Of a stretch of DNA of 64,000 nucleotides, positions 8,701-42,997 are shown one piece after another (positions within the stretch are counted from its first letter, which is position 1; the number at the start of each line of letters is the position of its first letter). The DNA is from Blastocladiella emersonii ATCC 22665 (lineage: Eukaryota > Fungi > Blastocladiomycota), in assembly GCA_025594325.1 (NCBI GenBank), contig JANHCV010000015.1, positions 682,001-746,000 of the forward strand. Direction: 5' to 3'. Both the position numbers and the translations under genes were made by a program. A model generated the notes under the pieces. That model did not search any database. It saw only the letters and a list, made by a program, of their open reading frames with translations, and was not told the origin of the DNA.

Positions 8701-9087
8701 TCATGGGGTAGGGACGTGCGCGGGGGTGTGGACGACAAGGTGTCAAGGCAATATTTGCACATGATTTCATCTCACCTCCCGGAAGCTCAAACCAACATGA
8801 GATTCTTTGTGGTTCCTCCGCGCTATGTGCCCTGCTTCGTCAAGTACCTCGAGGACGGGATTCTCGCTGCGCCGGCTCGCGTGAGCGTGAACGAGACGGG
8901 TGTAGAACCGTCGTTTTTCAAATCGCTCGAGCGGAATGTCTTTCGGTGCTTCCTCCTCCCGCTCTATCCGGCAAACGGAACCGAGTATCGCGTTGCTCCC
9001 GCGCAGCCCAATGCGATTCAGAACGCGGATGACGAGGAGGTGGACTACGGAGTTGTGGACGAGCGGATCATTGAGCTCGACGAATAA
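5756..9087 (+). CDS. DUF4470-like protein copy 3, intact; join(5756..7355,7430..9087), 1085 aa
   Basis: Same motifs and same intron position as copy 2. The intron carries a canonical TACTAAC branch point (7397-7403). The joined length of 3258 nt is in frame. Confidence 0.8.
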
Positions 9088-11089: not shown

Positions 11090-12184
11090 TGCGGAACGCG
11101 GTGACTCGCTGCCCATTTTGTTCTTGAACTTGCTAAATACATGCTTTTTGTTACTCTAATTTGTGCCTTGGAGGCATTGTCAACCCGAGCGGGCTGGACA
11201 ACTCGTACTGGACAACTCGTACAGAAGGGTGTTGAAAGCGCATTGTGAGACCCGTTTGCTGATCTTTCAAACGCCCTCTCTGGCGATGTGCGTCGCTGCT
11301 GCAACGGCGGGGCACGCAATTTGTTCGGAAATCTCCATGAAATGGTTTGGTTTGACGACTCCTACAAAAAACCATGATTTGCCCGCATAATGCCAGCGAA
11401 CACGCCTGCAGCGTGCTGTGCACCGGCTTGGACCGAATCACAGCCGTGCGAGCGGGCGACAGACTAGCGCTCGACGCCTTGCTATTATTAACAGTATCAT
11501 CGCCAATCCGAGCGGGCTGGACAAACTGTGTAGAAGGGTCGTAAGAGCCTTTGTAACCCTTATGTACGATTTGACTGATATTCTACAACCCTCTTGCGAC
11601 CCTTCTGCAACCCTTTCAGATTGGCGATGATCGCAGGCGCGTTGAGCGGCTGTGGACGTGCGCGCGACGATGATCGCGTCGCTCGAGTGGGGCGCCTCGT
11701 CGACAGTGGCCGCCCTGAGCTCGAAAATCCTCTTGAACTTGCTGTCCAGTGCAGTCTGCCTCAAGGCCATTGCGTCAAGTTGCAGAGGCTAATGGTTTGT
11801 GGAAGACAGCTCATGTCGAGCTTGACGACGGTGTGGGGAATAGATATCCGTGAGCCGATACCTTTGCGTTACTCACCAAACACACTTGGGTCAAACTTGG
11901 CATCAGCGCCGAACCAGGCGAACTCAAGCTCTGTCCGGCGCGGGTTTAGCTTGAAGCACTGGCCACCAAGTTCAAAAAGCGGAACGAGGAATCTCTCCAT
12001 TGGGCAAGTTTATATATCTTTATGATGGACTGTGGTCAGCGCGGGCGAGGTGTGATGGCAGAGGGTCGCGTTCGCGCAAAGTCCACCTGCACGAGCAGTC
12101 ACGTGATCCGTTGCGCCGCAAACTTCCGAGCCGCTCATCCGCCGCTCCTCGCCACACGAGCGACACCCACTCCATGCAAAACTG

Positions 12185-12680
12185 ATGAAGAACAAGTCCA
12201 AGACTAAGCCCAAAGCGACTCGTGACAGCGGTTCTTCCTCGCCGTCGCCTGCTTCCGCCGAGCCGGCCATGCCGACGGTGCCCGGCCCCGTGCTACTTGG
12301 TGACGGGACGTCAGACCCGTACTTGCCCTATGGCCGGTCCTACCCGCGCGACTTGCTCCTGTACCACAACCCGCGGGAGTTGAAGCAGCTTAACGTTGCT
12401 TGCGCTCAACTGCGGCGACTTGCGCGACGTTGCGCACACGATCGGCGAGGCCAAGCGCAAGTACGGCACGGCCGACTTGAACTTTGTGCTCAGCAACACG
12501 CAACCCGAGGTGCTTGCGCGCGATCTGCTGATTCTTCATGCGATTTCGAAAGGCGAGTTTGTTGGTGATCGTATCCCGGCGCGCTTCATTGGACAGCTGT
12601 ACTTTTCTTCGCTCCTCGAAATCAACGCTCGCGAGTTTTGGAACAAGCAGATGCGCTCGTGCCTCTTGGTCGAATGGGAC
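12185..12680 (+). pseudogene. DUF4470-like copy 4, 5' part (frameshifted, then interrupted by DIRS)
   Basis: MKNKSKTKP...PYLPYGRSYPRDLL start. A +1 frameshift near 12395 relative to copy 3. Homology stops at CLLVEWD (12680) and resumes at 33695. Confidence 0.85.
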
Positions 12681-12719
12681 CACTACCCAGTCACTCATCG
12701 CTCGGTCACCGCAGTGACC

Positions 12720-21845: not shown

Positions 21846-23789
21846 ATGGTCAAGAATATCTTTAACGTCTCAAGTACTGCGTCTCCGACCGTGTCTACCA
21901 CAGGGGTCCCGGACGTGTCCAAGGCCTACGTTGACGCGGCCATCAGTGCCGTGTACGCCACGGTCGGCGCACCTGTTGCTGGCCCTGGCGTGGCAGTCTC
22001 AGGGACCACTGTCTCGGCCAAGGTCGACAACCAGACCCTTGGCGTGGGCGCAGCAGGGCTCTATGTCAAGTCAGTTGGCACAGCACAGCTGCTCCCGGCC
22101 AGCGTCACGGCTGACAAGGTCGCCACAATTACAGCAGGGCAGGTCACAGGCAAGCTCGTCGATGCTCAGCTGGACACTGTGTCTGCGTCCAAGCTCGTGG
22201 GCGTGCTCAGTGCGTCCAATCTCCCAGCTGTTGGAACCTCGGTCCTGGCAGACGGCTCAGTGACAGATGCCAAGGTTGCGTCTGTGTCTGGGTCCAAGCT
22301 CGTGGCAGGCACAGTCGGGACCTCGGTCCTGGCAGACGGCTCAGTGACTGATGCCAAGGTCGCGTCCGTGTCTGGGTCCAAGCTCGTGGCAGGCACAGTC
22401 GGCACGGCGGCTCTCATTGACCTGGCAGTCACAGATGCCAAGGTCGCGTCCGTGTCTGGGTCCAAGCTCGTTGCAGGGACTATTGGGACGGGAGCCCTGG
22501 CAGACGGTGCCGTATCCAACGCCAAGGTGGCAGCTGGCATCGACAGGTCCAAGCTGGCAGCGGGCACGGTCGGCTCCCTGGTCCTGGCAGACGCGGCCGT
22601 GACCAACGCCAAGCTGGCAACTGGCATTGATGGGGGCAAGCTCAACGTTGGGTCCATTGGAACAGCCCACCTGGCAGCAGGCGCAGTCACAGACGCCAAG
22701 GTTGCAGACGTGTCGGCGGTCAAGCTCACTGGGATCCTTGACCCTGCCCGCATCGCCGACGGGACCCTGACCAACGCCAAGCTGGCATCTGGCATTGACT
22801 CGGCCAAGCTTGCAGGGACCATTGACCTGGCACGACTCCCCGACGTCTCGGCCAAGGTCACGGCGGTGAGCGCAGCCTTGGTCGCTGGCACGCTCCCCCA
22901 GTCCACCCTTGGACTTGGCGCTGCCTTTGCCTTTGCAAATACGACGGACAGCTCAACGTCAAGTACTGGAGCAGTCACCATTGCTGGTGGTCTTGGAGTT
23001 GGCAAGCAACTGACTGTGCCCAACGTCCTGGTCCGGAATGCCACAAGCGCAAACCTTGTCTTTGACTCGGCTGCCAATACATTGACGTACGTCAACTTTA
23101 AGCAGGCAGGCGTACTGCGAAGCAACCTGGCATGCACAGCGGCGGGTAACATTGAGATTGCGTCTGCGACCATGGGCGGGGTCTCCCTCGTGGCAGGTGG
23201 CGGCAATGTGGTTGTGGGCTCAGCGACGCTTGGCACAGAAAGGCTCCGCGTCAATGGCACTGGTCGCTTCACAGGGCAGCTCACCCTTGACCTCGCTCCA
23301 GTGGCAGGCACCGACGCGGCAAACAAGGCGTACGTTGACTCGCGGTCCGGCACGACCCGGTACGTCGCTCAGGCCAAGCACCGCTCTACAAATGGAGTGA
23401 CCACGGGCGGCAAGATCATTGGCGGCACAGCATCAACGGGCCCGGCCACCTTTGTGTTCCAGTCCACGGCGGGCGCGTTCACGTCTGTGATCAATGGATG
23501 TGTCAAACCCCCTGTCAGTGGCTACTACCTCGTCCATGCAAAGGGCTACTACGCAAACGGCGCGCTCCCTGGAGCCCACACTGTGAACTTTGCGCTGTAC
23601 AATATGACGGACATGATTGCAGTGTCGCTTGTCACCAGGTGCCGCGCTGAAGGCAACGTCCAGTTCCTTCAGTTCTCGAGCATTGAGTACCTTGACGTGG
23701 CCAAGAGCTACTCTTTCATCTGGATCCCGTCAGTCGCAGTTGCCAACGACTGCCAGGTCATCATTCAAAGCCACTGGACCCTGCTCTAA
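21846..23789 (+). CDS. Fibre/receptor-binding-like protein, 647 aa
   Basis: ATG at 21846 with CTGTTG-N8-TAAAC. Contains 26-aa shaft repeats (GTSVLADGSVTDAKVASVSGSKLVAGT), the phage-fibre-like motifs SKAYVD and DAANKAYVD, and a C-terminal C1q/TNF-like segment (GCVKPPVSGYYLVHA). Confidence 0.7.
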   Translation: MVKNIFNVSSTASPTVSTTGVPDVSKAYVDAAISAVYATVGAPVAGPGVAVSGTTVSAKVDNQTLGVGAAGLYVKSVGTAQLLPASVTADKVATITAGQVTGKLVDAQLDTVSASKLVGVLSASNLPAVGTSVLADGSVTDAKVASVSGSKLVAGTVGTSVLADGSVTDAKVASVSGSKLVAGTVGTAALIDLAVTDAKVASVSGSKLVAGTIGTGALADGAVSNAKVAAGIDRSKLAAGTVGSLVLADAAVTNAKLATGIDGGKLNVGSIGTAHLAAGAVTDAKVADVSAVKLTGILDPARIADGTLTNAKLASGIDSAKLAGTIDLARLPDVSAKVTAVSAALVAGTLPQSTLGLGAAFAFANTTDSSTSSTGAVTIAGGLGVGKQLTVPNVLVRNATSANLVFDSAANTLTYVNFKQAGVLRSNLACTAAGNIEIASATMGGVSLVAGGGNVVVGSATLGTERLRVNGTGRFTGQLTLDLAPVAGTDAANKAYVDSRSGTTRYVAQAKHRSTNGVTTGGKIIGGTASTGPATFVFQSTAGAFTSVINGCVKPPVSGYYLVHAKGYYANGALPGAHTVNFALYNMTDMIAVSLVTRCRAEGNVQFLQFSSIEYLDVAKSYSFIWIPSVAVANDCQVIIQSHWTLL

Positions 23790-24898
23790 AGCCCGCGGTC
23801 CCACTTTTCTTGGACTTGGACTGGGATGCGCCTGACCCGGGTCGAGGGCTCCCTTGGCGTGACTGGGGTGCGCGCAACAGGGAGCCTTGGAAGACCTGGA
23901 CCTACGCGCTGCCTTGTTGGCGGGTCCTGGGTCGCTGTGACTGGCTGGACGTCGCTGCGTGGATAGAAGCCCTTGAGGCCTTGGACCTTGTAGCTTGGAT
24001 TGCTCACGCCCGACCCCTTGCGCACGACCTGGACCTGGCTCACAGTTGTCGACCAGACCGGCTTCCCCTTGGCCTCCATGGCAGTCTTGTACGGCTCGCG
24101 GACTCGGACCTGGGTCCCTACCTTCAACAACGCGCTCAGAGGGTCGCCCTCGGGCTTGCCCTTGGCAGCTCGGATTGCCTTGAGCTCTTGCTTGGCCGTT
24201 TCGCGGGGCATGTCATGGAACGCGTTGGGTGCCTTGCTTGTGGCCCTCGACTTGCTGCTGTTGATCACAGATTCAATGGTCTCGAGGTGCTTGGGCCAGT
24301 CGTTGTTGCCCGGGATGGACAGCCACGGTGTGAGCATCCAGCGGATGGTCCTGTTCATACGCTCAACGACACCTTGACCGTATGGCACTCCTGCCTTACC
24401 CTTGATGTGCTTGGCCTCGGTCCCGGCCTCTATGCCAAAGAACTCGGTCCCATTGTCCGTCTGGATCGTGGCAGGTGCAAGGCTGTGCTTGGCAACCACG
24501 CTGGACCATGCTTCCCGCGTCTTGTCCTTGGTCTTGATGGGTTGGAGGTAGACGCGGCGGCTCGCCAGGTCAACACACGTGAGAATGTAATGGAAGCCCT
24601 TGTACGTACCGTTTTCGCCCATGTCAATGAGGTCGAGCTGAAAGTTGCGGCCAGGACTTGTTGAGTTGATGCTTCGAATGTCTCGGCGCTTCTGAGGTGC
24701 GCGTTTGTACTGCTGCCACACAGACTGTTCACCGAGCCATCTCTCAAGCTGGGCGCGGTAGATGTGCTTCCCTGTGTGCTCTTGGTCGACAATGTCAAAG
24801 AGACGTCGGATCCCAACCCCAACATGGCCGCGTTTGTAGTACAAGTCTTTCAGGTACTCGGTCTGTTCAGCAGTCAAAGGTTCTTCGTGTGGATACAT
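23786..24898 (-). CDS. Retroviral-type (rve) DDE integrase of polinton class, 370 aa
   Basis: FQLDLIDM (D), YILTCVDLASR, IQTDNGTEF (D), GVVERMNRTI (E, 31 residues after the second D), then a KVGTQVRV...W SH3-like tail. Its stop overlaps the fibre stop. Confidence 0.93.
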   Translation of the reverse strand: MYPHEEPLTAEQTEYLKDLYYKRGHVGVGIRRLFDIVDQEHTGKHIYRAQLERWLGEQSVWQQYKRAPQKRRDIRSINSTSPGRNFQLDLIDMGENGTYKGFHYILTCVDLASRRVYLQPIKTKDKTREAWSSVVAKHSLAPATIQTDNGTEFFGIEAGTEAKHIKGKAGVPYGQGVVERMNRTIRWMLTPWLSIPGNNDWPKHLETIESVINSSKSRATSKAPNAFHDMPRETAKQELKAIRAAKGKPEGDPLSALLKVGTQVRVREPYKTAMEAKGKPVWSTTVSQVQVVRKGSGVSNPSYKVQGLKGFYPRSDVQPVTATQDPPTRQRVGPGLPRLPVARTPVTPREPSTRVRRIPVQVQEKWDRGL

Positions 24899-24919
24899 TT
24901 ACAACAAAGACAACAAAAG

Positions 24920-26089
24920 TTACTCGGGCTTCACACGGTTGGTGTAGTACTTCTCGGACACCTTGGACGTGTGACCCATCTCATGGCAACGCTGCTCACG
25001 CTCCAGCCATGGCACATCGGCACCCTCGGTTGCGACAACACGTTGGACCTTCTGCACGCCGCACTTCTTGTCCATGAGATCCAAAATCGTGCAGTCAATG
25101 GACTTGTTCCAGGTGTTGTGGAGACGCTTGTTGACCTCCTTGCTGGCCAGGTCCTCAATGGTGCAGTTGATGAACACAAAGTCATGGCCCTCTGCCTTGC
25201 GCTTGGCAATGACACACTCCAGGGCGGCTGCCACCTTGGGGTTGGGGATGACGTGTGAGAACTTGTGGCCACGACCCTCGGTCTTGACACAGATTGGACC
25301 TGCCACAGTCTTGGTCTCCGGGTCGTAGTGCGGGTACTTGTTGTTGGGACTTGTGGTCAGGTACGCCATGTTGCTGCGCGTGGCAGTCATGACCTGGAGG
25401 TACACTTGGAGATTGGTCATGGGCCCCTTGCCCTGGAGCGTCGCCCAGTTCTCAGCAGCAACAACAGCAGCCAGGAGGTCGTCACTGCTTGGGAGCGTCC
25501 CTGCCTCTTCAGCATTGCGCTTCTCACGGGCAGTATCAGCGTCCTGCTTCTTGGCCTCCGTGCACTTGGCCCCGAGTTTGGTCCACCCGTTCCAGGTGCA
25601 GTACTTGGCCAGGGCCTTGAGCGTCTCGACCTGCAGTCCCTGGACGTTCTTGGACCCCTTGGTCGCGCGGTAGGTGGCCACGGCCTTGGACACGGCCTCG
25701 ACGTCCTGGATGTCCAGACCTGAGGCGGCAAAGGCAAGGAGCACACAAGCCGTCTTGGCCTTGTCATCGGCGTCCAGCTCGGCCGGCTCCCCGTTCTTGT
25801 TCACCACGGGCGCGTCGACACACGCAGTAATGGACTCTTTGGTCAGCTCAGCAAACTTGACTTGGGGCGGCTCCGGGGTGTCGACTTCCACGGGAGTGAC
25901 TTGCTGATCAGCGCCGTGATCTGGGTCGTGTGACTCGATGGCCTTGAGTCGCGCGTCCAAGTCCTTGAAGCGCTTGTCGATTGACCCAAACACGGGCTGG
26001 AGCTTGTCCATGACTTGCTGCACCACGTCTGCGGCAACATGCTGAGCAAGGGCAACGGCGACCTGGGAGGCAAGAGACTCGAGCGACAT
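24920..26089 (-). CDS. Tyrosine-recombinase superfamily protein (integrase or telomere-resolvase-like), 389 aa
   Basis: Candidate catalytic set in the correct order: R (TATRSN), K (VKTEG), KxxR (QKVQR), H (MGHT) and Y (EKYY, 8-9 residues after H). Confidence 0.7.
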   Translation of the reverse strand: MSLESLASQVAVALAQHVAADVVQQVMDKLQPVFGSIDKRFKDLDARLKAIESHDPDHGADQQVTPVEVDTPEPPQVKFAELTKESITACVDAPVVNKNGEPAELDADDKAKTACVLLAFAASGLDIQDVEAVSKAVATYRATKGSKNVQGLQVETLKALAKYCTWNGWTKLGAKCTEAKKQDADTAREKRNAEEAGTLPSSDDLLAAVVAAENWATLQGKGPMTNLQVYLQVMTATRSNMAYLTTSPNNKYPHYDPETKTVAGPICVKTEGRGHKFSHVIPNPKVAAALECVIAKRKAEGHDFVFINCTIEDLASKEVNKRLHNTWNKSIDCTILDLMDKKCGVQKVQRVVATEGADVPWLEREQRCHEMGHTSKVSEKYYTNRVKPE

Positions 26090-26171
26090 GGTTTACTGAC
26101 TGTCAACAAAAAGGCTCCATGGGCTCAAGTGCGTTTGAACGCAACGTTCTTTTTTCTGGGTAGCTGGGCCT

Positions 26172-26505
26172 GGGTCAGGGTCAGGGTCAGGGTCAGGGTC
26201 AGGGTGGTGGCAAGTCATGGGCCATGCCAACAAGGCACCCCCCCCTCCGACCCTGACCTCCAACCCTGACCTCCAACCCTGACCTCCGACCCTGACCTCA
26301 GACCTGGCGCCCTTGACCTGACCCCCCGACCTGGCGCCCTTGACCTGACCCCCCGACCTGGCACCCTTGACCTGACCGCCCACCTGACCGCCCACCTGAC
26401 CCCCGCCTGACCCCCGCCTGACCGCCCACCTGACCCCCGCCTGACCGCCCACCTGACCCCCGCCTGACCCCCGCCTGACCCCCACCTGACCCCCGCCTGA
26501 CCCCC
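26172..26505. repeat. Strand-asymmetric repeat block: (TCAGGG)5 followed by C-rich CCTGAC arrays with 13-, 27- and 11/12-bp units
   Basis: Read directly. It lies between the divergent YR and TVpol-helicase genes. Confidence 0.92.
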
Positions 26506-26633
26506 ATACCTTTTTGCAGTGACTAACTGCACACGTACCCAGACACGGCCAGCAGCAATAGCAATGATCGCGGCGCTTCAAAAGCACGGCCCCGCCCCCG
26601 CTCCCAGACTGCGTTTTTCCGCATCAAAGTAAA

Positions 26634-28976
26634 ATGCTTTATTCTGTGCTTAACAGTAACTACTCGGCCATGCCCCAGCTGACCAAGATCGCCAAGACCC
26701 TCGACTACACCAAGTCCATGTTCACGGACTTGCGCCAGGTCGTGCTGCATGAGTACTACAACAAGGACGTGCTCGACGGGCTCTGCGCGCGGTACTTGGG
26801 CATCGACGCCGAGGTCAAGAAGAAGCTCAAGGCCTACGCGGCGCTGGCCAAGGCGAGCTACGGCGATGGCAAGGAGACCGTGTACTCGTTCACCACACGG
26901 TCGACCTCGGTCGAGAAGAAGTTTGGCTGACTCTACGCCACGTCGCCGTCGCTCCAGAGCTTCAGCAAGGACCTCATCCGCAGCCCGCTGGCCAAGGGCG
27001 TGCTCCAGGACCTTGACATGAAGGGCGCGGCGCCGTCAATCCTCCGCGGCGTCTGCCAGCACTACAACCTTGGCCACGGCGTCTTTGACCAGTACCTCGC
27101 CAACCGCACGGCCGCGCTGGCCAAGTGGGGGCTCGGGGATAAGCAGGAGTTCCTCTCGATGCTGTTCAACGAGTTTGTCGACCGCGACGCGGTGCACCCC
27201 GAGCTCGCGGCCTTCCACCACATGCTGTACGGTTCGCTGTACAAGCTGATCGAGAAGGACTTTCCGCACGTCGTCAAGGCGTCCAAGCCTCGCGCGGACA
27301 AGACCATGAACAAGGGCTCGGTGCTCTCCAACCTGTTCCAGGCCGTCAAGTCGATCCTCCTGATGCGCGCCATTGACTTTGCCCGCGCCAACGACCTTGT
27401 GCCAAGCGTGCTTGTGTTTGACGGGTTCATGGTCAAGAAGGACGACCGCATCAACGCCAAGCTGCTCGCCAAGATGTCCGCCGACACGCTCAAGTACATG
27501 GGCTTTGAGGTGGAGTGGGACGAGAAGGAGATCACGGTGCCTGAGTCCAAGGACAAGGGCAAGCTCCCCGACTTTTGCGAGGACCCGGCCGCGTTTGTTG
27601 CCGTGCAGCTCGAGCGTGACCCGCACTACGACAACGACTGGATTGGCAAGGTCATCACCCACTACCTCAGCCGCAAGGTGGACGAGGACAAGCAGTCGTG
27701 GAAGGAGGCCGTGATCAAGTACGTGGGCGAGTTTGTCCGCAAGGACCTGGTCGGCGAGATGTACTTTCGCCGCACCGTGACTGACGCCTGGGACACCAAC
27801 GGCAAGGACAACGTGAAGAAGGCGTGCAGCACGGGGGCCATCAAGTACGCTCCACAGGTCAAGGCGCTCATCTTTGACATGCACAAGCCGCAGTGGGGGC
27901 CGTCGCACCAGAACGGCCTTGTGGTTGACTACTTTAACGCGTTCTATGGGTTTGCAGCCACGGACCTTGGCCGCGACATTGAGCCCGAGTCGATTGCCAT
28001 GTACCTCGAGTACATTCGCGACGTGGTCTGCAGCGGCAACGAGGAAGAGTACGCGTATGTCCTCAAGTGGATCCAGTGTCTGCTCACCACGGGCAAGGCC
28101 AATGGCGTGATGCTGCTGCTGACGGGTCTCGAGGGCGTGGGCAAGGGCAAGTTCTACCACCTTCTGGCCCAGTACATTATCGGCCGCAAGAACACGGTGT
28201 CCATCAGCAACGGGCTGACGTGGCTCAAGGGCGAGTTCAACTCGGAGATCGCCCACAAGATGCTCGTGCTGTTCGACGAGATGCCCTCCAGCAAGCCAGC
28301 CAAGCTCAAGAACGCGTTTGACAAGCTCAAGAGCATGGTCACCGAGGACAAGCTCATCGTCAACGAAAAGTACATGAAACGCAAGGAGGTCGAGAACGTC
28401 AACAACTTTATGATCGCGACCAACAACTGCGACGTGCTGCCACTCACCAAGACTGGTCGCCGCGAGTTCGTCCTCAAGATGTCCAACATCAAGTGCCAGG
28501 ACGAGAACTACTTTGGCGAGCTCGACGCGTTTGTCAAGGAGCACGCCGACGAGATCTTTACCTACATCCTCCGCCTCGACCTCTCGCACCTGACGCTGTC
28601 CAAGTTCCCGCGCAACCAGGCCCGCAACGACGCCATCATGGCGGCACTGGAGCCGGTTCCCGCGCTGGCCATGGACATCATGGAGTACGGCGGCTTCCCG
28701 CTCAACCTCCTGGACCACACGCGCCAGGTCGAAGTTGTGCAGGAGCTCGAGGCAGAAGCGTTCTACGAGTTTTACCGCAAGTACGCCGAGAAGCGCTTCC
28801 CTGGCCGCTCGTCCATGTCGCAGACCAAGTTCGGCGAGTACATCAAGCGCGAAGTCAACCCGGCCAACAAGCAGGAGCTCTTCGAGGTGACGCGTCGCAC
28901 CGTGAATCGCCGCAAGCTTCGCATCTACAAGTACCGCGGGCCGTACACAGTTGAGCTGTCCGACGACAAGATGTAA
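26634..28976 (+). pseudogene. TVpol (PolA-like primase-polymerase) fused to a D5-like SF3 helicase; one in-frame TGA at 26928-26930
   Basis: ORFs 26634 and 27000 share a frame. FG*LYATSPSLQSF matches the PolA GRL...P.LQ motif, with QDLDMKGAAPSIL (motif A) and LVFDG (motif C). The helicase has TGLEGVGKG (Walker A), VLFDEM (Walker B) and FMIATNN (motif C). Confidence 0.82.
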
Positions 28977-29054
28977 CGAGTCCAGAGACTCCTTTGTGAA
29001 TACAACTTTGTACCTTTTGTTTACTGTACTCGCAGCGACTGGGTCACGGCAGCC

Positions 29055-30108
29055 TGGACCGGGTTGCCCGCCCTTTGAACCGTTCGCCGTAAGCCATGGA
29101 CCGGGTTCAATGGACCAAGTCGATTGAAATTCGTTTGGGGTAAGCCATGGACCGGGTGGACCGGGTTGAGGGGGTCGATTGACCTTTAGGGATTTGAAAG
29201 GGGGGGAAGAGTGGCACTGGAGCGGTCCCTCCCCCCCTTTTCACTACACTGTTACTTTAAAACAACCCGGTCAACCCGGTCAACCCGGTCCATGGCTTAC
29301 CCCGAGCGAATTTCATGGACCGGGTTGTCTTTGAACCCGGTCCAGTGAGCTCCAACCCGGTCCAGTTCAGGGCGGCCATTGAGAGCCTTCAGGGGCTGGT
29401 CGCCGACCTGGGTCGCTGCTCGCGTTCTTGGACTGACCGCCGACCTCTCGTGGAATTATTCCGAGAGCCTTCAAGGGCCTATTGCCGCGACCAAGTCGCC
29501 GACCAAGTCGTGGGCCGGCTCGTGGAGTGACTCCGTGGTCGCCGACCTGGGTCGCTGCTTGCGTTCTTGGACTGACCGCCGACCTCTCGTGGAATTATTC
29601 CAAGAGCCTTCAAGGGCCTATTGCCGCGACCAAACAGATCGACTTGCAGCTGTGCTCAGGGACCAGACCAGGGAACTCTGTCAGTGGGTAGCCGCAGCTG
29701 CGCTGCTCTTCGTCTCGCTGCGCTTGCCGGCCGCCGCCGACCGCTCGGGGTAAGCAATGGTCAGCCCGAGCGGTTGGTCAGGGACGGGCTCAGGGATCTG
29801 CTCTCGGACTTGTCTCGCAGATCGACTCGCAGATCGACTCGCAGCCGTGTCCACGCGCCGTTCATCTGCACGTGACCCACGTGACCCCGCCCGCCGCCGC
29901 CCTTCTTCGGCCTTCGGCCTCCGCCCGCGTGTTGTGTTCCCTAAGGGAATCCGACATTTGAATCCGACATATTATTAACCACCCGGGGTAAGCAACGGGG
30001 TCTCACGTGGTTACCCCAAGTGACTGCTGCCAACCGCTCGGGGTAAGCAATTGGTCAGCCCGAGTGGCAGTGGGTCAGCCTATGTCGTATCCCTTAATGG
30101 ATACGACA
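29055..30108. repeat. Virus right TIR (1,054 bp)
   Basis: Reverse complement of 14372-15425; ends ...GGATACGACA. Confidence 0.97.
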
Positions 30109-30109
30109 A

Positions 30110-32395
30110 CGACTTCTCGGAATTTTGGACCCCGACGCGTGCGCAGCGGCGCTGGCAGCGGCGTCGGGCCTGAGTGGGCAGGAGCAGGAGGACTATCTCG
30201 AGAGGACGCTCCTGCACCCGCACGCCACGACCCCGGTTGGCGGCCGCTTCCACCACCCCGACTTCAGGACGGTGTGGCTCTTGCTGCACGACTCGGCGCT
30301 CGTCGCGTCGGTCATGCCGCAGGGCCTGAAGCTGCCGCTCATCTCGGAGCCGCCTCCTCGCCTGCGGCCGCGGACAGTAGCGGCCTCGGCGGAGGAGCGG
30401 GAGATCCTCGATCGCGAGGTGCAGACATGGGTCAAGAAGGGTGCCGTGGCGCCGGCGGGTCCGTGCGACCGGGCCGCGGTGCACCCAACGTTTGTTTGGA
30501 TCCAGCGATCGGGAAAAGCGCGCGTGATCACGAACTATTGCTACGTCAACCAGTTCATCCCGGCGGAGCGCTTCAAGATGGAGACGCTCACGTTGGTGCG
30601 GTCGGTCATCCCGGAGATGGAATGGGCCGGCGTGGTCGACATCAAGGACTTCTTCCTGCACCTGGGCGTTCACCCGGACCACCGCCACCTGCTGCGGTTG
30701 GAGGTGAACGGGAAGGTCTACGAGCCGCTGGCGAACCTGTTCGGCCTGTGCCTCCTTCCCCGCGTCTTCACAAAGTTGATGCGCCCGCTGCTCGGGATCC
30801 TGCGCTCGGTCGGCGCGACGACGATGGCCTGGATCGACGACATCATCATCGGCGCGGAGTCGAGGCACCTGTGCCTGCGGCTCCTCGTCGCTCTCGTTCG
30901 GCTCCTCCAGCTGCACGGCATGCGCATCTCGTGGGCCAAGCTTGAGCTGCCGGCGCAGTCGCTGATCTGGATCGGCTGGGAGTGGGACCTCGCGCGCAAG
31001 GCGTTCGCGCCGTCCCTGGCGAGGCGCCGGGATCTTGAGGAGTCCCTGGCCGCCCTGATCCGACGATCGCAGGCGCCGCCCCGCACGGTGGCGAGCGTGG
31101 TCGGCAAGGTGGTCTCGATGGCGCCAGCGATTGGCGACCTCAACCTCCGCACCATGGAGCTACGGCGCGTCTACCGCACGGCGGCGATGGGGACGATACG
31201 CCGCGGCGAGTGGGACGCGCGCATAGTCGGCGTGACCGGGACGGTTCGCGAGGACCTCGAGGACGCTCTCGCTCTCCTCCGCCGCGCGACCGAACCGGCA
31301 CCGCTCCAGTGGACCGAGCAGATCACGACGTGCTTGGATGCGTCGGGCTCGGGCTGGTCCCTGAACGCTATCATCAACGGGACCCTTCACCGAGTCGGCG
31401 GCCGCTGGACGGCAGCACAGCTCGACCCAATCATCCCGCTCCTGCAACAGGCACCGACGCGCCACCAGCTGGCGGCGGCGTTGGTGCGGGGAGTGCCGGC
31501 GACGGAGTTTGTACACATCGGCGTCCTGGAGCTGATGGCAGTCCAGCTCAGCCTCGTGGCGCTCTTGAATCGCCCGGCCGCGGGCAAGGCGTTACGGAAT
31601 GGACACCTCCTTGCAAATTTGGACAACCTGTCCGCAGCGCTCTACTTGGACCGCCGCGGCGGCAGGAAATGCCCAATGATGAACGCCGTGGTGAGAGCGA
31701 CGTGGGCGTGGGCAGCGGACCGCGGCCTCACTCTCCACGCGCGCCACCTCCCACGAGCAGAGAACAAGCAGGCCGACCTGGACTCGAAGGCGGGGCACGA
31801 CCCGTACGGGTGGATGCTGCACCCGGCCCTCTTTGCGCAGCTACGCCAGCTGTGGCCGGTGTTGATCGACCTGTTTGCGACTGCGCTGAACACGCAGATC
31901 CCGGATCGCTTTGTCTCGTACTCGCCCGACCCGCACGCGACGGGGACAGACGCGTTCTCGATGAACTGGGGCAGGGAGGACGCGTGGATCTACCCGCCCT
32001 GGGGGCTGCTCCCGCGCGTCCTCCGCAAGGTCCGCTCGGACGGGGCGACGGCCACGGTGATCGCGCCGTTCTGGCCGACGCAGCCGTGGTACTCGCTCCT
32101 GCTCTCGCTCCTGGTCGACCTGCCCATCCGCCGCCCCAAGTCGGTGCACACGGTCTTCACGCCGGAGGGAACGGCGCCGTCCACTTTGACTACCAAATTA
32201 GTCGCTTGGAGGCTCTCCAGCAATTCTACGCGGCGCGCGGTCTTCCTCCAAAGACTGCGCGCGTGGCGAACGAACGGCTGGCCAAGTCCACCAAGGACGC
32301 ATACGACTCGTCCTGGCGGCAGTGGCTTCTGTGGTGCCGTGGGCAACGATCCGATCCCCTTCATCGATCTGTTGACGCCCTTTGCCGGTTTCTGA
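30110..32395 (+). CDS. DIRS pol (reverse transcriptase, RNase H, Dam-like methyltransferase); 5' end at ~14260-14370 separated by the virus
   Basis: RT: ERFKMETL, VDIKDFFLH, LFGL...PRVFTK, WIDD. RNase H: LDASGSGW, HIGVLEL, LDN, HLP...NKQAD. MT: IDLFAT...DAFS...YPPW...IAPFWPTQPW. Confidence 0.93.
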   Translation, partial: RLLGILDPDACAAALAAASGLSGQEQEDYLERTLLHPHATTPVGGRFHHPDFRTVWLLLHDSALVASVMPQGLKLPLISEPPPRLRPRTVAASAEEREILDREVQTWVKKGAVAPAGPCDRAAVHPTFVWIQRSGKARVITNYCYVNQFIPAERFKMETLTLVRSVIPEMEWAGVVDIKDFFLHLGVHPDHRHLLRLEVNGKVYEPLANLFGLCLLPRVFTKLMRPLLGILRSVGATTMAWIDDIIIGAESRHLCLRLLVALVRLLQLHGMRISWAKLELPAQSLIWIGWEWDLARKAFAPSLARRRDLEESLAALIRRSQAPPRTVASVVGKVVSMAPAIGDLNLRTMELRRVYRTAAMGTIRRGEWDARIVGVTGTVREDLEDALALLRRATEPAPLQWTEQITTCLDASGSGWSLNAIINGTLHRVGGRWTAAQLDPIIPLLQQAPTRHQLAAALVRGVPATEFVHIGVLELMAVQLSLVALLNRPAAGKALRNGHLLANLDNLSAALYLDRRGGRKCPMMNAVVRATWAWAADRGLTLHARHLPRAENKQADLDSKAGHDPYGWMLHPALFAQLRQLWPVLIDLFATALNTQIPDRFVSYSPDPHATGTDAFSMNWGREDAWIYPPWGLLPRVLRKVRSDGATATVIAPFWPTQPWYSLLLSLLVDLPIRRPKSVHTVFTPEGTAPSTLTTKLVAWRLSSNSTRRAVFLQRLRAWRTNGWPSPPRTHTTRPGGSGFCGAVGNDPIPFIDLLTPFAGF

Positions 32396-33186
32396 TCCAC
32401 CGGTTCAAGGAGGTCCGGGTCAGGGCCGGCACGGTCGCAAACGACCGCACGGCCATGGCGGACACGTGGGGTGACTTCCCCAATCGGGGCACGATGACAC
32501 ACGCGTCCAGGAGCGTGGTCGTCTCCAACGTGCTCGAGGGACTTGAGGCGATGCAGGGCCCGACGATCCCAACGAACGAGATCCCCGTGTTCGACATCCG
32601 CATCCTCGACGCGTACGCGGTGCGGCTTGGCTCGGCCGAGGACGTCCCGCTGCGCATGCTCGGCGCGCGGCTCGCTTTCCTCATCATCTGAGGCGCTCGG
32701 CGGCGGTTCAGCTGCCTCGCGCGCATCCTGCTCACGCACTGCCGCGTCACGCAATCCAAGGTGAAGCTCGCCATCCTCGGTCCCAAGGAGGCGCAGCGAA
32801 CGCTGGTGATGGTCGAGATCGACCGCAACACGCGCGTTGCAGAGCTCGACATCGGCGTGCAGTGGGAGGCGTACATCGCCAGGTCGGCGGCCCGCCGCAA
32901 GGACCCGGCGCGCATGTTCGTCTCATCAAGCGGACCCATCAAGCCAGTGGTGGCGGACACAATCTCGTCGTGGATCCGCGACTTCATGAAGCAGGCGGGA
33001 CTCGAGGGTTTCGTCCCGTACTCGCTCAAGGCAGCGGCGGCGTCGTCGCTCTCAGAATTGGGCGCCACCGACGAGCAAGTTGCTCAAGGAACGTGGGCGT
33101 CGACGCGCACGTTCAAGCGTCACTACCGGCGCCCGGTTCAACTCATTGCGCCGGTGGCCGACGCGACGCGCAACCATGCTAACTAG
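32161..33186 (+). pseudogene. DIRS tyrosine recombinase (start approximate) with an in-frame TGA at 32689-32691
   Basis: STKDAYDSSWRQWLLWC...FL (SAM-like N-domain). ORFs 31210 and 32761 share a frame. The C-terminus has YSLK in place of HSxR, then GTWASTRTFKRHY. Overlaps the pol MT domain in another frame. Confidence 0.88.
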
Positions 33187-33694: not shown

Positions 33695-36582
33695 AGCTAC
33701 AAGCGCCATCGGCGTTGCAGACGGGGAAACGCTCCTTGCAGTGCGCCGTTGCTGGCAATCCTGGCTTGCATGCAACTGGACACCCGAGCAGCTTCTCGCT
33801 TGACGCACCAAACATCATGCTACGTTTGGTGATTCCTTCGCTCGTGATAATCCGAACCGCATCCTTAACACATTCGCGCCTGTGCGTTTTCTTAAGCGCC
33901 GCCTTGGTGCGGGTTATCCATCGACTGACAAGGGTACGGACCTAAAAGCCTTCAGGAAAGATCTGCTTGTCGACTCGGCTGCCGGCGCGTACTGGGGCGT
34001 GAAGACTACAACTGTAAAATCGTTGGAATGTGTCATCAATCAGACCTTGCTTCGCATTGGTCCAGATGACACGCTCCGCTTCTCGAGCCTGCCTTCTCAC
34101 TCGCCCCTGGATGTTCTCTCTTGTAACAAGTTGGACGTGCAGGCGCTAATTGTCCAGGCCAGTACCGCCTTGCTTGGCGCGCTCTCATTCGTGTTTGGCC
34201 CTGATTGCGAGCCGCGACGCCAAGGCGCTTACCCGCCAGCCAGCGAATGGGGCGATAACCCTCCTCTGCCCAAGTTCCAATGTCGCATCAAGTTTTGCGC
34301 CGACAACCCGCTTACCGTTATGGAGTCATTGGCTGCGCAGAAGCAGCGATTCCATGCGATCCACACGGGATCGACCATGGACACGTACGGCTTGCTCAAC
34401 CTACTTGTTCACGCGGCGCCTCTCCTCGCCAACAACGAGGCGAAACTCTGCTCTCAAATCCACTGTTCAACCGACCGCCTTCCGTCCGTTGCACGGACCC
34501 GCAACGAGTTCATCGCCCGCGCGACTGGGCTTCCGCTTTAAGCCATCCCCACGCTTTTGGGCATCGGGTACCATGATCGCACCAAGGACGATGATTGGGG
34601 TTCGCAGGTCACGCGCTTTGCCTGGAGCGCAGGCCACGTTGAGCGGCACGATGGTCGCAGCAGCGAGGCGTTCACCTTTTTGAAGCTCGACTTTCCGAGC
34701 GTCCCCATCGCGCTCAAAGAGACGCCCTTCCTCCTCGATTCGCTTGTCCGCTGCGCCAAGCAGCTTTGTGAGGCCTCGTTCACGGCTTCGGATCACACTC
34801 TTGGTGCGTGCTCCTCATCCAGTTGACGTGGTCTTCGTTCACTCACACCTTTGAATGTCGTATGTAGCTTCTTCGTGCGCGGTCGGCGCCCTGCTGCCGA
34901 AGCTCGTTGGATTCGCGTTCGCTGCTGGTCGACTCTCATGGAGCGGTGCCACCGCTCACTGCTTGCCGTGGCCCAGCATGCCAGAGCTTTGGTCAGCGCT
35001 TGCCACAAGCTCGGTGCTCGCAGCCAACGCGGCCGAAATGGTCGCACAAGCCCAGCTTTACAGCTTTCCTGTTGCGGCGGCTGGAGCGAATGGCAAGGAC
35101 GCGTACTTGTACTGTGTCAACGGCACGTTCAAGCTTTCCAATCCCGTGTCTTTCACCCCGCTCGTGGTGTCGCTGGAAATCCAGGACGGGTCGATTGTGC
35201 ACGAGTTCCAGAGCGTGCGGATTACCCGTCTTGCAGGCGGTCGCGAGGCACGTATTGCTGCTTACGTCCCGCGCCATCTCGTTGAGGCCGCTCCCAGTGG
35301 CGTTCGACCCCGCGTTAGCTTCCGTCGCGTGCTGGTCGGATCCGAGACTCTGGCCACGGATGAGCGGCTGACCTCAATCCCGCTGACCGCCGTCGCTGCA
35401 ACTCTCGTTCCCGTTGGCTCGCTTGCTTCCACGTTCACAAAGTCGGTTGACTTCTCGGCGGCCAATCGCTACACGGCAACACAGCGCCTAGTTGTCTCTG
35501 TCAAGCATGTTGCCGAGGATGCCAACGCGATTTATCTCGGTCTTAGCGTTCCGTCCGCCGAGCGCACGCAAGTCCATTGCGGTTCGGCTCGAGGCGGCGA
35601 AAAGAGCCGTGAAATTGAGCTCACGATTGCTGGTGCTTCTCATGTTTATCAGTTCTCGTACCCCGTTGAGATTACAACTTACAAAGACCCCAGGTCCAGC
35701 CGAGCTTGCGTCTTCTTGAAGGCGAAGCGGGAGCTCTCAGCGACCAGCTCAAAGTTGTACTACTTGCCTCATCTTCCTTGCCTCGCCGATTACTCTGACG
35801 TTTTCGCGCCTGGCACTTGCGCTGACGTGGACCAGCGGGCTTCACTTCACTCGCTTCGCTTCGCAGCGACTGAGGATGCTGGGGATCTTATTGCCAACGT
35901 GTTCTCCAAGGACGTGAAGCTGTCTGTCCCTCAGGCAGCCCTTCTTCTCCGCATTTTCGCCATCGACGTATTTGAAGCATTCCGTGATGGCGCTCGCGTG
36001 GTTCACTTTTTCGAATACAGCGAGGAGGACGGCAACGACCACGTCGCTCTCCTGTTCTTGAACCGCCTGTCGGTAATCCCGCCCATCGACTTGGATCACG
36101 CGCCGACACCTATCCTTGACGTCAGTGTCCTCCCGCATGCCGACTTCGCGCGCGAATTCTTTTGGGGAAAGACATCGAAAATGAGTCGGTCTCCCGCCGC
36201 TCAACAGCCGTTCTCGGAGCTTCTTGCATCACTCGATATTGCTCCAGGCAAGATCAAGAATCTTTATGTTCCCGTCGACTTGGTGGACCACGTTTTTGAT
36301 TACCTCCACGACGGAATTCGCATGGTGCCCACCAAGGTTGTTGCCAACGACGCGGGGCTCCCCGAGTCGGTCTTCAAGACCCTCGTGCCCAGTCTTTATC
36401 GCTGCTTCATGCTCCCGCTCTTCCCTACCAACGGCGCCGAGTACTGCGAGAACCCAGAGTCGACCGACGACTTCGATCTCGCTGGAACGTTTGACTTCAG
36501 CGAGATGGACGATCGGATTGTTGAGCTTGATGCTGACGACGACGGCGAGGATAAGAGCGCGGACGGCGCCAGTAGTTTTTGA
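33695..36582 (+). pseudogene. DUF4470-like copy 4, 3' part
   Basis: Continues the frame broken at 12680. In-frame stops at 33801-33803 (TGA) and 34539-34541 (TAA). Conserved intron 34804-34867; exon 2 is open to 36582. Confidence 0.85.
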
Positions 36583-37048
36583 ATTGGGTTGATTTTGTAA
36601 CGTAATTGAACATAATATTTTTATTTTGCTCTGGCCTGGCCTGCCTTTTGCTCCGACTCGTCGTTGCGCAACCTGTCCTGCGCCAACCGGCAGGCCTCAC
36701 ACCGCCGCCACCGGTGCGAAATGAGCGACGCGTCCGGTCCGCTCGATTGCGTCATGCGGTCGCGCCGCTCAACCGGTGGCGCACGATTCATGAGCCGCCG
36801 CTGCGGGTGTGGCTCAGCCACCTTGACCGCTGCTGCGGCCCGGCTGCGCCACCAAATAAATTTGCGCCACAGTTGCTGCGGCTCGCTTGCGTCGAACTAG
36901 GCCCTTGTCCGCAGCAACAAGCCGCGAGATTCCGCTTGTTTGACATGTGCAGCGCGACTGTCAATGCACGTCATCGTTCAGCCGCTGCTGCGGATCGAGC
37001 CTCCCGCGCGAACGCCTTCCCCCGCACGGACAGGCGGGCGAGCGAGCG

Positions 37049-37055
37049 TATAAAG
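37049..37055 (+). promoter_or_regulatory. TATA box (TATAAAG) of Gly-rich gene A; an equivalent one at 38583-38589 for gene B
   Basis: The same heptamer lies 108-125 nt upstream of both paralog ATGs in GC-rich DNA. Confidence 0.6.
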
Positions 37056-37173
37056 TAGCGGGCCTCCCGCTCACCATCTTTCGACAGCACAACCAACAAC
37101 AAGAAGCGAGCAGGTCTCCTCTCACCCACCCACCCAACCTACCCTCACCTCCCTACCACTACACTACATCAAG

Positions 37174-37746
37174 ATGACCTTTGGCCTCCTCAAGTCGATC
37201 GTTGCCGGGACCCACGCTGGCGCTGGTGCCGGGTACAACGCGGGCGCGCACGTCGGCGGAAACTACAACGCGGGCGGCAACGCTCACCACGGCGGCCAGT
37301 TCAACGGCGGCGGCCACGCGTCGGGCAGCGGCAGCTGGAGCTCCGAGTGGCACTCGGAGTGGTCGTCGAGCTGGAGCAGCAACTGGAACTCGAGCTGGAG
37401 CAGCAGCGGACAGTCGGGCCACGGCGGCTACGGTCGCGGCGGCCGGTGCCAGCGCGACGAGGACGGCAGCGACGGGACCTCGTTCATCCAGTCGTCGGCC
37501 AACGACGACAGCAACAACACCGCGGGCGACGCGTTCCAGGGCGACGGCGGCAACGCGTTCCAGCCCGCTGACGGCAGCGACCAGTTCGCGTTCCACACGG
37601 CGGTCCAGCCCGAGGAGGTGTTTGGCGCGTCGTCCATTTCGTCGGGCCCCGACGAGTTTGCGGCCGTGACCGTCGACCCCGCGGCGGCGTCGCAGCAGGC
37701 CGCTGAAGCCCATGCCTCGTCGGTTGCGACGTCGGCCCTCGCTTGA
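37174..37746 (+). CDS. Gly/Asn/Ser-rich protein A with a W-x3 repeat, 190 aa
   Basis: TATA box, C/A-rich leader and strong GC3 codon bias; clear paralog at 38691. Confidence 0.8.
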   Translation: MTFGLLKSIVAGTHAGAGAGYNAGAHVGGNYNAGGNAHHGGQFNGGGHASGSGSWSSEWHSEWSSSWSSNWNSSWSSSGQSGHGGYGRGGRCQRDEDGSDGTSFIQSSANDDSNNTAGDAFQGDGGNAFQPADGSDQFAFHTAVQPEEVFGASSISSGPDEFAAVTVDPAAASQQAAEAHASSVATSALA

Positions 37747-38690
37747 TCGTGCGGAGCTGGACTCGCGCGCCGTGTAAACATTCCTGTTTGAATACATTCT
37801 GTAACTCAAATAATTTTGTCTCCAACCGATGGGCGCAAGCAAGAGGAGGACTAATGGAATGAGTAGTGGTGCGTCGCGTTCGAGCTAATCAACGGCGCGT
37901 CCAAGACGGTGAGGCAGCGGGAAACCCGAAACTACCTTGATGGTTCGACCAATGTCAGGATAGACATCATCAGCAATCAGGAGTGCAAGTCACCGACCTT
38001 CGCCTCTCATCGTCGTTCGTGAATGCGACGGCGAACATGAGGTGCAATCAGCACCCCTGGTGCGACGCGTTGAGCGACGCGTTTCGACGCGTCGAGCTAT
38101 CACCTGGCCCGCGCGAGACAACCGCGTATCTCTCGTTGAACGACGGCTGCACTCCCGGACTGACCATGGGCTTGCAGTTCGTCATCGCTTGTCACCGCCC
38201 CCGCGACGCCCATGCGCCGAACCGCTGTCGCCCTTGGCAGCACGCGCCACTATACGCGTGTCTTTCGTCACTCGCCATCGCGGAACTCGATGGGCGCAGC
38301 CTAACCGCAGCGCATGGTGCCGCACGACCGGTGGCGCAGAGTTCATGGCGTGCCCGTGCACGAGGGTGCTAAGCCGCCCGATGGCCGTCGCGCGGTCGCT
38401 GCGCCACTACGCCGCGCCCGACTGCGGAGCGCGAACAAGCGGTGCTGCGGCCGCGGCCAAACGGAACGCGTCGGGATTAGCTTCGCTTGCGCGGGAGTGT
38501 GCCAAGGCTCGCGGGCCGGCGGGAGCTAAAGATTGATGGTGATGCGAAGCTTGATGGCGCCGTGCAGCGGGGCGACGGAAAGTATAAAGGGCGGCCGAGC
38601 CCTCGCACTTCGGATCGGATCAGCAGCAACAACAGCAAGAGCGAGCCGGCCTCACTCTACATACTCCACCGAAACCTACTCCTCATCACC

Positions 38691-39320
38691 ATGACCTTCG
38701 GACTCATCAAGGCCATCCTCGGCGGCGGCGCGAACTGCAACACGGGCGGCTCGATCGGCGGCGGCGGTTACATTGGCGGCGGGGCTCACGCCGGCGGGCA
38801 GTACAACGGCGGGGGTTCCTTCAACGGCGGGGGTCACGCAGGCGGCAACTACAATGGCGGTGGTAACTTCAACGGGGGCGGCAACTTCAACGGCGGCCAC
38901 TCGGGTGGCGGCGGGTCGTACAACGGCGGCGGCCACTCGTCGGGCAACTGGAACTCGGAGTGGAACAGCAACTGGAACTCGGACTGGAGCTCGAACTGGG
39001 GCTCCAACTGGGGCGGTAACGGAGGGTACGGCAGCGGCGGCCGCTGCCAGCGCGACGACGACGGGTCGTCGTACCACCTGCAGTCGACGGACAACGGCGG
39101 TGGCGACGCGTTCCAGTCGGCCGGCGACGCGTTCCAGGCCTCCTCGGCTCAGCAGCAGCACGCCGACTCGTTCTCGGCCGCTAGCGCTACCTCGCACAAT
39201 AGCGTTGACGAGCTCTCGGTCGCCTCGACCGTCGACCACTCGTCCGTCTCGCACGCCGCGGACGCGCACGCCCAGGCCGAGGCTGCTGCGTCGGTCCATG
39301 CGTCGTCGACCATCGCCTAA
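38691..39320 (+). CDS. Gly/Asn/Ser-rich protein B with a W-x3 repeat, 209 aa
   Basis: Shares MTFGL, the six-Trp block, GGYGxGGRCQRDxDG and two GDAFQ motifs with protein A. Confidence 0.8.
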   Translation: MTFGLIKAILGGGANCNTGGSIGGGGYIGGGAHAGGQYNGGGSFNGGGHAGGNYNGGGNFNGGGNFNGGHSGGGGSYNGGGHSSGNWNSEWNSNWNSDWSSNWGSNWGGNGGYGSGGRCQRDDDGSSYHLQSTDNGGGDAFQSAGDAFQASSAQQQHADSFSAASATSHNSVDELSVASTVDHSSVSHAADAHAQAEAAASVHASSTIA

Positions 39321-39675
39321 GCGTGCGGCCTCGTTTGAAACGGGCGTCCGCCCTGTCGTTCACACTGTCGAGTCGTATCTGGAATACATTTACTTGATAT
39401 TAAAACCTTTGTGTGCGTCCGGTCGCTCAACATCAACCAACGGGCGCGGTCCAACCCGCGACCCGCGACCCGCGCTCGCGAAAGTGTCTCGCGCTGGTCA
39501 CATGATTGATCGACGCGTCGCGGCTGGTTCGGCCGTGACGTGCGTGAGGTTTTCAGCTTGGCCCCGCTTGAATGCTTTCTTCCTGTTAGTGTGAGACACC
39601 TCGCAAAAGTTGCATGGATTGGTCAGAAAAATCTAGGCAGTATAGTTCAATTAAATATTCGAAGCAATGCAGCTG

Positions 39676-42917: not shown

Positions 42918-42948
<31 letters not shown>

Positions 42949-42997
42949 CCTTGCCCCGCGAAGCGTTGCCCTTAGTCTTTGCCTTCTTTGGCTTCAT
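39676..42997 (-). pseudogene. DUF4470-like copy 5 (inverted; two frameshifts)
   Basis: MKPKKAKTKG start and the DUF4470 motif. The frame breaks near 42280 and near 41225 relative to the paralogs. The conserved intron lies at about 41373-41430. Confidence 0.78.

Follow-up and report, generated by a model that had tools for sequence, protein, structure and literature searches.

An integrated element that already carries an rve integrase and yet encodes a second recombinase raises the question of what the second enzyme does. In elements combining rve and tyrosine recombinase (YR) genes the job of the second integrase has so far only been hypothesised, and the way in which integrated polinton-like viruses (PLVs) are excised and have their ends copied without a protein-primed polymerase is a standing question. 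Such a locus is found in Blastocladiella emersonii ATCC 22665, in a stretch of 64,000 nucleotides (contig JANHCV010000015.1, positions 682,001 to 746,000), hereafter the window, to which all coordinates refer. A first-pass annotation had proposed that the YR encoded there might be a telomere resolvase acting on the palindromic ends of the element.

The analysis presented here indicates that the enzyme is most likely not a protelomerase but a YR of the type found in giant viruses, virophages and polinton-like viruses. The explanation that we consider probable combines three elements: a second recombination route provided by the Arg-bearing alleles of this PLV-type YR, an impaired allele in the window, and palindromic tips that would serve for fold-back priming. 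The remaining interest lies mostly in the element family and its ends, and less in the motif. The family, whose host is a likely culturable fungus, comprises numerous copies with several YR alleles, one of them naturally devoid of the Arg, and has a defined candidate site of 26 bp.

The element and its insertion

The YR gene is hosted by a polinton-like element of 15.7 kb at 14372-30108 (Table 1). Terminal inverted repeats (TIRs), a size within 15-30 kb, an A32 ATPase, an integrase and a helicase-type replicase are all present, and by its gene content the layout is that of a polinton-like virus with a putative capsid gene. The 406-aa putative capsid ORF beside the ATPase gave no Pfam, PHROGs or PDB sequence match; furthermore, no protease gene was recognised in the element and no protein-primed polymerase was found among the ORFs scanned. 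The rve integrase ORF sits directly downstream of the YR gene. The replication gene has an in-frame stop at 26928-26930, past which the frame runs on into the SF3 helicase, while its upstream part, including the region of the stop, presumably resembles a PolA-like TVpol domain. In the A32 ATPase the Walker A motif reads GAKGQGKL, with a final Leu where Ser or Thr is usual and, together with the stop in the replication gene, this suggests that the window holds a decaying copy of the element.

Two repeat regions were also observed. At 26160-26510, GGGTCA-type repeats face the C-rich array, in what is a candidate origin or promoter region. At 15084-15997, the inner part of the left TIR is duplicated in tandem (about 500 bp), with 42-bp repeats and nested inverted repeats, and this duplication has no counterpart at the right end.

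Table 1. Coordinates of the element, its ends and the catalytic positions of its tyrosine recombinase.
Feature	Position	Strand	Remarks
Target duplication, left copy, 5 bp, imperfect	14367..14371	+	4/5 bases match 30109-30113
Left TIR, 1054 bp	14372..15425	+	3 mismatches vs right TIR
Left terminal palindrome, 26 bp	14372..14397		perfect, TG...CA, 6-bp centre CTTAAG
Putative minor capsid protein, 247 aa	16625..17368	-	proposed from position; no library match
Putative major capsid protein, 406 aa	17696..18916	-	proposed from size and position
A32-like packaging ATPase	18957..19754	-	PF04665 E 1.6e-11
Fibre-like protein, repeat-rich	21846..23789	+	PF09327 E 3.3e-9
rve (DDE) integrase, 370 aa	23786..24898	-	PF00665 E 4e-6, under curated cut-off
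Tyrosine recombinase gene, 389 aa	24920..26089	-	N-terminal coiled coil, about 1-55
H373 (second His) to Y382 (predicted nucleophile)	24944..24973	-	both invariant, 26/26
HxxR box Q346-K-V-Q349-R350	25040..25054	-	Q346 His slot, Q349 Arg slot
K269, beta-hairpin-region Lys	25283..25285	-	invariant in 26 family proteins
R238, first catalytic Arg	25376..25378	-	aligns to lambda R212
C-rich array, 11-12 bp units	26240..26510	+	between divergent YR and helicase genes
Replication gene	26670..28976	+	SF3/D5-like helicase part 27018-28976, PF19263 E 4.5e-19
Right TIR	29055..30108	-	3 mismatches vs left TIR
Right terminal palindrome	30083..30108		one mismatch
Target duplication, right copy	30109..30113	+	empty site in X1-X3 contigs

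The element ends in TG..CA, which, together with the 5-bp target duplication (four of five bases matching), is as expected of an rve integrase. With the PF00665 match added, these features agree with the earlier proposal that the rve integrase accounts for the chromosomal insertion, which was probably its work. Target duplications of 3-5 bp in EMALEs and of 5-6 bp in mavirus are given in the available text of PMC8547959. The empty site is seen in contigs of runs X1-X3 (one sample), which join 14365 to 30108, and the element start at 14372 recurs in 5-9 contigs of each run, the flanks being unrelated. That a further A, at 14371, might be a base of the element was rejected, as it is present in just one of seven (X1) and one of ten (X2) other flanks. 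Summed contig depth, which is not to be read as a copy number, amounts, for the larger part of the element, to 20-40 times the depth of a single contig, and for the 3' half of the YR gene to about four times.

Domains and catalytic residues of the recombinase

That the ORF encodes a recombinase of the YR type is borne out by the structural models, in which its product has a two-domain YR fold with a core-binding domain (about 80-190) and a catalytic domain (about 195-385). The model of the window protein has a pLDDT of 57, falling below 50 in residues 328-389, and that of an Arg-bearing relative, P0004, reaches 82.5. The family alignment comprises 26 proteins, the 54-aa fragments, P0002 and P0052 (an identical sequence) having been left out.

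The ORF contains R238, K269, K347-V-Q-R350, M371-G-H373 and Y381-Y382, the distance from H373 to Y382 being nine residues, and in hhalign comparisons R238 and the GH motif align to lambda Int. The R238 column holds Arg in 23 of the 26 proteins and Cys in two, P0018 and P0019, and is missing in the split P0009. K269, set by hhalign three columns off lambda K235, is a candidate for the catalytic Lys of the beta2-beta3 hairpin, and Y381 is variable (Tyr in 14/26).

The first-pass annotation had read KxxR in place of HxxR. The letters K347-V-Q-R350 are indeed present, but the register is off by one, the His slot being Q346: hhalign with nine phage integrases sets lambda H308-E-L-R311 over Q346-K347-V348-Q349, and a non-significant alignment sets ResT Y-F-C-R over columns 346-349. 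Across the 26 proteins, the His slot (column 346) holds Q in 12, A in 12, R in one and N in one, and never K or H; column 347 holds V (12), K (6), Q (6) or E (2); the Arg slot (column 349) is R in 24 and Q in the window copy and P0009; and column 350, the position right after the Arg slot, is R in 23, W in two and H in one. In P0010 columns 346-350 read R-E-L-R-H, a canonical box in which the catalytic Arg is preceded by a hydrophobic residue, and four of the six proteins with K347, those of the P0008 type, have a K-L-R-R box. From the family columns and the profile register it follows that the window allele is QxxQ and not KxxR. Thus, the Lys regarded as a sign of protelomerases belongs to a variable column, and the Gln in the second Arg slot is a feature that the annotation did not contain.

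Integrase or telomere resolvase

Reference sets for the family comparisons were hand-picked, with nine integrases taken from 241 records and 11 telomere resolvases from records of phages (37) and plasmids (264); all YR profile scores are weak and are based on these 9 + 11 sequences. Using the catalytic domain, hhalign gave E 4.8e-4 (score 30.0) against the integrases, the Arg, HxxR and GH motifs lining up, and E 0.095 against the resolvases (0.75 and 0.024 for subsets of them), with the C-terminal motifs mostly misaligned. When twelve random four-sequence subsets of each set were used, the scores were 11.9-27.9 for integrases and 11.1-20.3 for resolvases, and the two reference sets matched each other with a profile score of 44.5, far above that of either against the window YR family. 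Pfam Phage_integrase matched P0009 (E 0.0049) and P0010 (E 0.062), and PHROGs gave a single weak integrase match (E 0.0036) in one of 11 proteins. PF16684 (ResT/TelK) matched none of the 12 proteins scanned, with HMMER filters that discard most matches above E 0.1, and neither PDB sequence searches nor NCBIfam gave a match for the YR family. Outside Blastocladiella and Allomyces the only YR sequence match was one Logan protein, and no related loci were found in viral contigs searched with the YR alignment, the capsid protein and the capsid alignment, in metagenome contigs searched with the YR alignment, or in either collection searched with the palindrome pattern.

In a tree of 28 rows (eight of the 26 family rows and the 20 references), the YR family and the resolvases form separate clades, 100/100 each, on very long stems (3.8 and 4.9 changes per column), the bootstrap being unsettled. 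The profiles, for their part, lean towards the integrases.

When the P0004 model was compared with PDB structures by VIA-align, the matches included XerA (Z 10.1, rmsd 13.8, 238 aligned), Xer (9.6), SroF (9.3, rmsd 5.2, 243), XerH (9.2, rmsd 5.0, 251), Cre (9.0, rmsd 6.1, 250) and MrpR (6.1), and the window model matched Xer (Z 8.6); protelomerase rows are absent from both lists. The Foldseek check that had also been proposed was equivocal, with XerA (E 4.4e-3), TelA (6.6e-3, rank 2) and lambda Int (1e-2) practically tied for the P0004 model, none of them significant, and Cre giving the best TM-score (0.49, vs 0.33 for TelA and 0.25 for TelK); with the poorer model of the window protein, TelA and TelK ranked first and second. 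Among predicted viral structures, nine matches of the P0004 model are better than E 1e-3, with unnamed and giant-virus proteins at the top (best matches E 8e-7 to 3e-4, TM up to 0.56), and the EhV-86 ResT/TelK protein occupies rank 26 (E 8e-3, TM 0.34). In the ESM Atlas, the nearest clusters of P0003 are Preplasmiviricota proteins (0.98), and the window protein is as close to a ResT/TelK cluster as to the viral ones (0.97, 153 shared features; 6/30 matches), bacterial integrases being lower (0.95, 119-127 shared features).

The His-to-Tyr spacing of nine, which had been put forward as a TelK-like sign, does occur in seven N15-type protelomerases, but the lambda, phi2, Mannheimia, iLp84 and Xfas53 integrases have it as well (5 of 9 matched the pattern), and in TelA the spacing from His394 to Tyr405 is 11 (PMC3558466, available text). 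In the His slot of telomere resolvases, the N15 type has K, two cyanobacterial enzymes have H, ResT has Y and phage MAR has R, and this His varies even among integrases. According to the same part of PMC3558466, the slot is Tyr in TelA, and the hairpin-refolding residues of TelA, Tyr201 and Arg205, are poorly conserved among resolvases. Since such features vary among resolvases or are found in ordinary integrases too, neither the His slot nor the spacing is diagnostic, and the caution already expressed in the annotation, that the motif alone is not decisive, was well placed. A fair reading of the comparisons as a whole is that of a distinct YR lineage of eukaryotic viruses outside PF16684, possibly with a distant link to the small resolvases.

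The window allele and its relatives

YRs are normally crippled once the second Arg is lost. Having Gln where 24 of the 26 proteins carry the predicted second catalytic Arg, the window allele is likely to be impaired. Q349 is also present in P0009, a 93% identical copy annotated as two pieces (P0002 and P0009), and these are the two known copies of the Gln allele, which forms its own branch (0.57, support 100/99). Its frame is open, with R238, K269, H373 and Y382 all retained. Residues 74-200 show 60-80% identity to the P0001, P0003 and P0004 types, and residues 311-382 about 30% to any Arg-bearing allele; the open frame and the conservation of H373 and Y382 in spite of this low C-terminal identity look like the result of selection rather than decay. 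The alleles appear to be mosaic, the N-terminal half being near the P0003 and P0001 types and the last 80 residues far from all Arg-bearing alleles.

Moreover, at least five YR allele types coexist beside a conserved gene in the capsid position, the YR types being 36-69% identical in the catalytic domain and the putative capsid 84-96% identical, and the locus tags place divergent YR alleles within a few genes of such putative capsids. Protelomerases are described as strictly sequence-specific (PMC3558466, available text), so that alleles as divergent as these fit one fixed target poorly.

Two other explanations have been considered for the window allele. It is rather improbable that the Gln allele is a maintained inactive DNA-binding protein, working as a regulator or competitor of the active alleles as integrase-derived phage regulators do. 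The Gln shared with P0009, the separate branch and the intact frame are consistent with such a role, as is the presence among the structural matches of SroF (Z 9.3) and MrpR (Z 6.1), both of which we take to be inactive regulators; however, the allele retains R238, K269, H373 and Y382, the other of its two known copies is annotated in two pieces, the element decays elsewhere (replication-gene stop, atypical Walker A), and a common fold proves no function. An active window allele, in which R350 (with K347) would replace the lost Arg in a KxxR of the topoisomerase-IB kind, is likewise improbable. In the K-L-R-R box of the four P0008-type proteins K347 and R350 stand beside an intact Arg slot, column 350 accepts H and W, and a side chain displaced by one residue along a helix no longer faces the active site, although the other catalytic positions have been kept despite about 70% divergence over the C-terminal 70 residues and R350 itself is found in 23/26 proteins. 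Likely impairment of the allele is the reading adopted in what follows.

The palindromic tips

The terminal palindromes reported in the first-pass annotation are real, perfect at the left and with one mismatch at the right, and they do call for an explanation; that the Arg-bearing relatives resolve hairpins there is conceivable but unlikely. Each palindrome makes up the outermost 26 bp of its TIR, and 0/100 shuffles reach two matches. The left one folds into an 11-bp stem with a 4-nt loop, and the mismatch in the right one adjoins the 6-bp centre. The palindromes belong to the element rather than to the target. The idea that they are an att core common to the target was ruled out, the empty site of the X1-X3 contigs having no palindrome.

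With its 6-bp symmetric centre, the left tip has the form of a resolvase target and is, by sequence alone, a candidate site. The variants listed in contigs number 0 in 14372-14410 vs 15 in 14411-14530; as the variant table also omits the differences that the window itself has at the right tip, and as the tip is altered in one X4 contig, the conservation of the tips is weakly shown by these counts. A second copy of the tip half-site was not found inside the element, except for one 9/10 match in the fibre gene, and no strand-changing joints were seen among those listed, in short-read contigs that are unable to reveal hairpin ends.

The shape of the tips would be the expected product of a hairpin end nicked after CA, 13 nt from the apex, and then joined to the target, which is compatible with a resolvase and equally with fold-back priming, a process proposed for the tips of Halocafeteria elements (10.64898/2026.07.28.741278). 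The available text of that study describes palindromes beside target site duplications (TSDs) in virophage subtypes 1, 2, 5 and 6 as well as PLV subtype 4, ties them to non-pPolB replicases and particular RVE integrases, and states that Halocafeteria PLVs do not combine RVE with YR. Since PLV subtype 4 has RVE, it should have no YR, and by this text palindromes appear to be possible without one.

Proposed roles and rival explanations

In the explanation held here to be probable, for which we infer all enzymatic roles of the YR and the rve integrase, the Arg-bearing alleles would break duplex DNA and reseal it by way of a phosphotyrosine at the equivalent of Tyr382. They would thus provide a second recombination route, either into the genome of a helper giant virus or between the element's own ends, and the palindromic tips would fold back and prime end replication by a non-protein-primed replicase, the YR being unneeded for this. 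No att site for the YR was found, nor was a helper virus or a circular form of the element seen, so that the job suggested for the YR is borrowed from other elements. The rve and YR genes occur together in EMALE05-08 and in Halocafeteria virophages, for which integration into giant viruses has been proposed (PMC8547959 and 10.64898/2026.07.28.741278, available text), and giant viruses are reported in Allomyces (PMC13533422, available text).

It is unlikely that the YR family represents a hairpin telomere resolvase, whether by distant descent or by convergence. Such an enzyme would cut both 26-bp palindromes, so that the provirus leaves as linear DNA with covalently closed ends, and would also resolve the end junctions formed by replication. 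For reinsertion, the hairpin would have to be nicked behind the terminal CA (13 nt from its apex), after which repair would yield exactly the observed ends. The even 6-bp centre of the perfect left palindrome fits this scheme, as do the lack of a protein-primed polymerase among the ORFs scanned and tips owned by the element, with the same start beside differing flanks; against it, the right tip has its mismatch next to the 6-bp centre and the window copy lacks the second Arg. The blank of listed variants at the tips also fits, but is weak and is accompanied by the altered tip of the X4 contig. Regarding the protein, the second rank of TelA in Foldseek, the ResT/TelK tie in the embedding and a local likeness to the ResT Y-F-C-R-R box (not significant) favour the resolvase; the KxxR and spacing arguments, however, both fail, PF16684 is unmatched, and profiles and tree favour integrase kinship or leave room for it. 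Furthermore, phaeoviruses, which are eukaryotic viruses, use such enzymes (PMC13236599) and it has been proposed that YRs act on viral ends (PMC11296320), while one capsid type is shared here by highly divergent YR alleles and a Halocafeteria PLV subtype has, by its text, palindromic tips without YR. A replicon with hairpin ends served by two enzymes, in which the Arg-bearing YR would pop the provirus out closed-ended and the rve integrase would open the hairpins at CA and reinsert it, is likewise unlikely; if true, PLV-type YRs would form a branch of the telomere resolvases that has gone unrecognised, with the Gln allele as a disabled or regulatory version. In a literature search that left most subscription papers outside, no work was found joining protelomerases with polintons, or dealing with catalysis by the OLV11 tyrosine recombinase in virophages.

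Relation to known systems

The YRs of PLVs, virophages and giant viruses (OLV11-like, PMC4642659, available text) have the same architecture of about 310 aa, core-binding plus catalytic, and the best structure matches include those of Aureococcus anophagefferens virus, Heterosigma akashiwo virus 01, Tetraselmis virus 1 and Qinghai Lake virophage. The window allele differs from them by the Gln at the second Arg, and the likeness is one of structure and embedding.

At the level of the whole element, EMALE05-08 and the Halocafeteria virophages share the same two integration enzymes, the TIRs, a short TSD and a non-pPolB replicase (PMC8547959; 10.64898/2026.07.28.741278). In the available text of the latter, several subtypes have palindromes within the TIRs adjoining the TSD, as here, although with 52 nt in subtype 5 vs 26 bp in the window element, and rve and YR occur together in virophages only and not in PLVs, whereas the window element is PLV-type with both. 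The window element also differs from these elements in its fungal host and in that no protease gene was recognised.

TelN/TelK, TelA and ResT have the same YR-fold catalytic domain, TelN/TelK share the His-Tyr spacing of 9, and the candidate site in the window is palindromic with a 6-bp centre, as the targets of hairpin telomere resolvases are. In contrast, the window YR family has no PF16684 match, has Q, A, R or N in the His slot and forms a separate clade; moreover, N15 and phiKO2 have one internal tel site beside the gene, whereas the candidate sites here form the two ends of an rve-integrated element. The Xer, Cre and lambda recombinases offer the best PDB fold over both domains (XerA Z 10.1; Cre TM 0.49) and the best profile match, but the HxxR His is absent in 26/26 family members, identity is 8-16% and no att site was found.

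Distribution and genomic surroundings

The cluster of proteins in the capsid position has 26 members, some of them fragmentary. The named YR and capsid homologues are all from Blastocladiella emersonii, with the addition of one Allomyces javanicus YR (P0011), which hints at a wider spread within Blastocladiomycota. No literature linking Blastocladiella with polintons was found (most subscription papers lay outside the search), and a large survey omitted fungi, by its available text (PMC10120064); the element family may be undescribed so far.

The element splits a DIRS-order retrotransposon between its gag-like ORF and its RT gene, so that a PLV is here inside a YR retrotransposon, whereas in Cafeteria the nesting is reversed, with Ngaro inside a virophage. 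This retrotransposon (12678-33700; gag-like ORF 12978-14153, RT 30314-32395) has terminal inverted repeats and a complementary internal region, and its own YR, at about 32251-33182, is interrupted by a stop codon in frame near 32690. Finally, a host tandem gene family flanks the retrotransposon on both sides (1-12700 and 33900-43200), its paralogous blocks being spaced by about 3.3-3.5 kb and having a DNA identity of 65-84%; two stretches coding for Gly/Asn/Ser/Trp-rich repeats are found at 37174-37746 and 38700-39050, about 1.5 kb apart.
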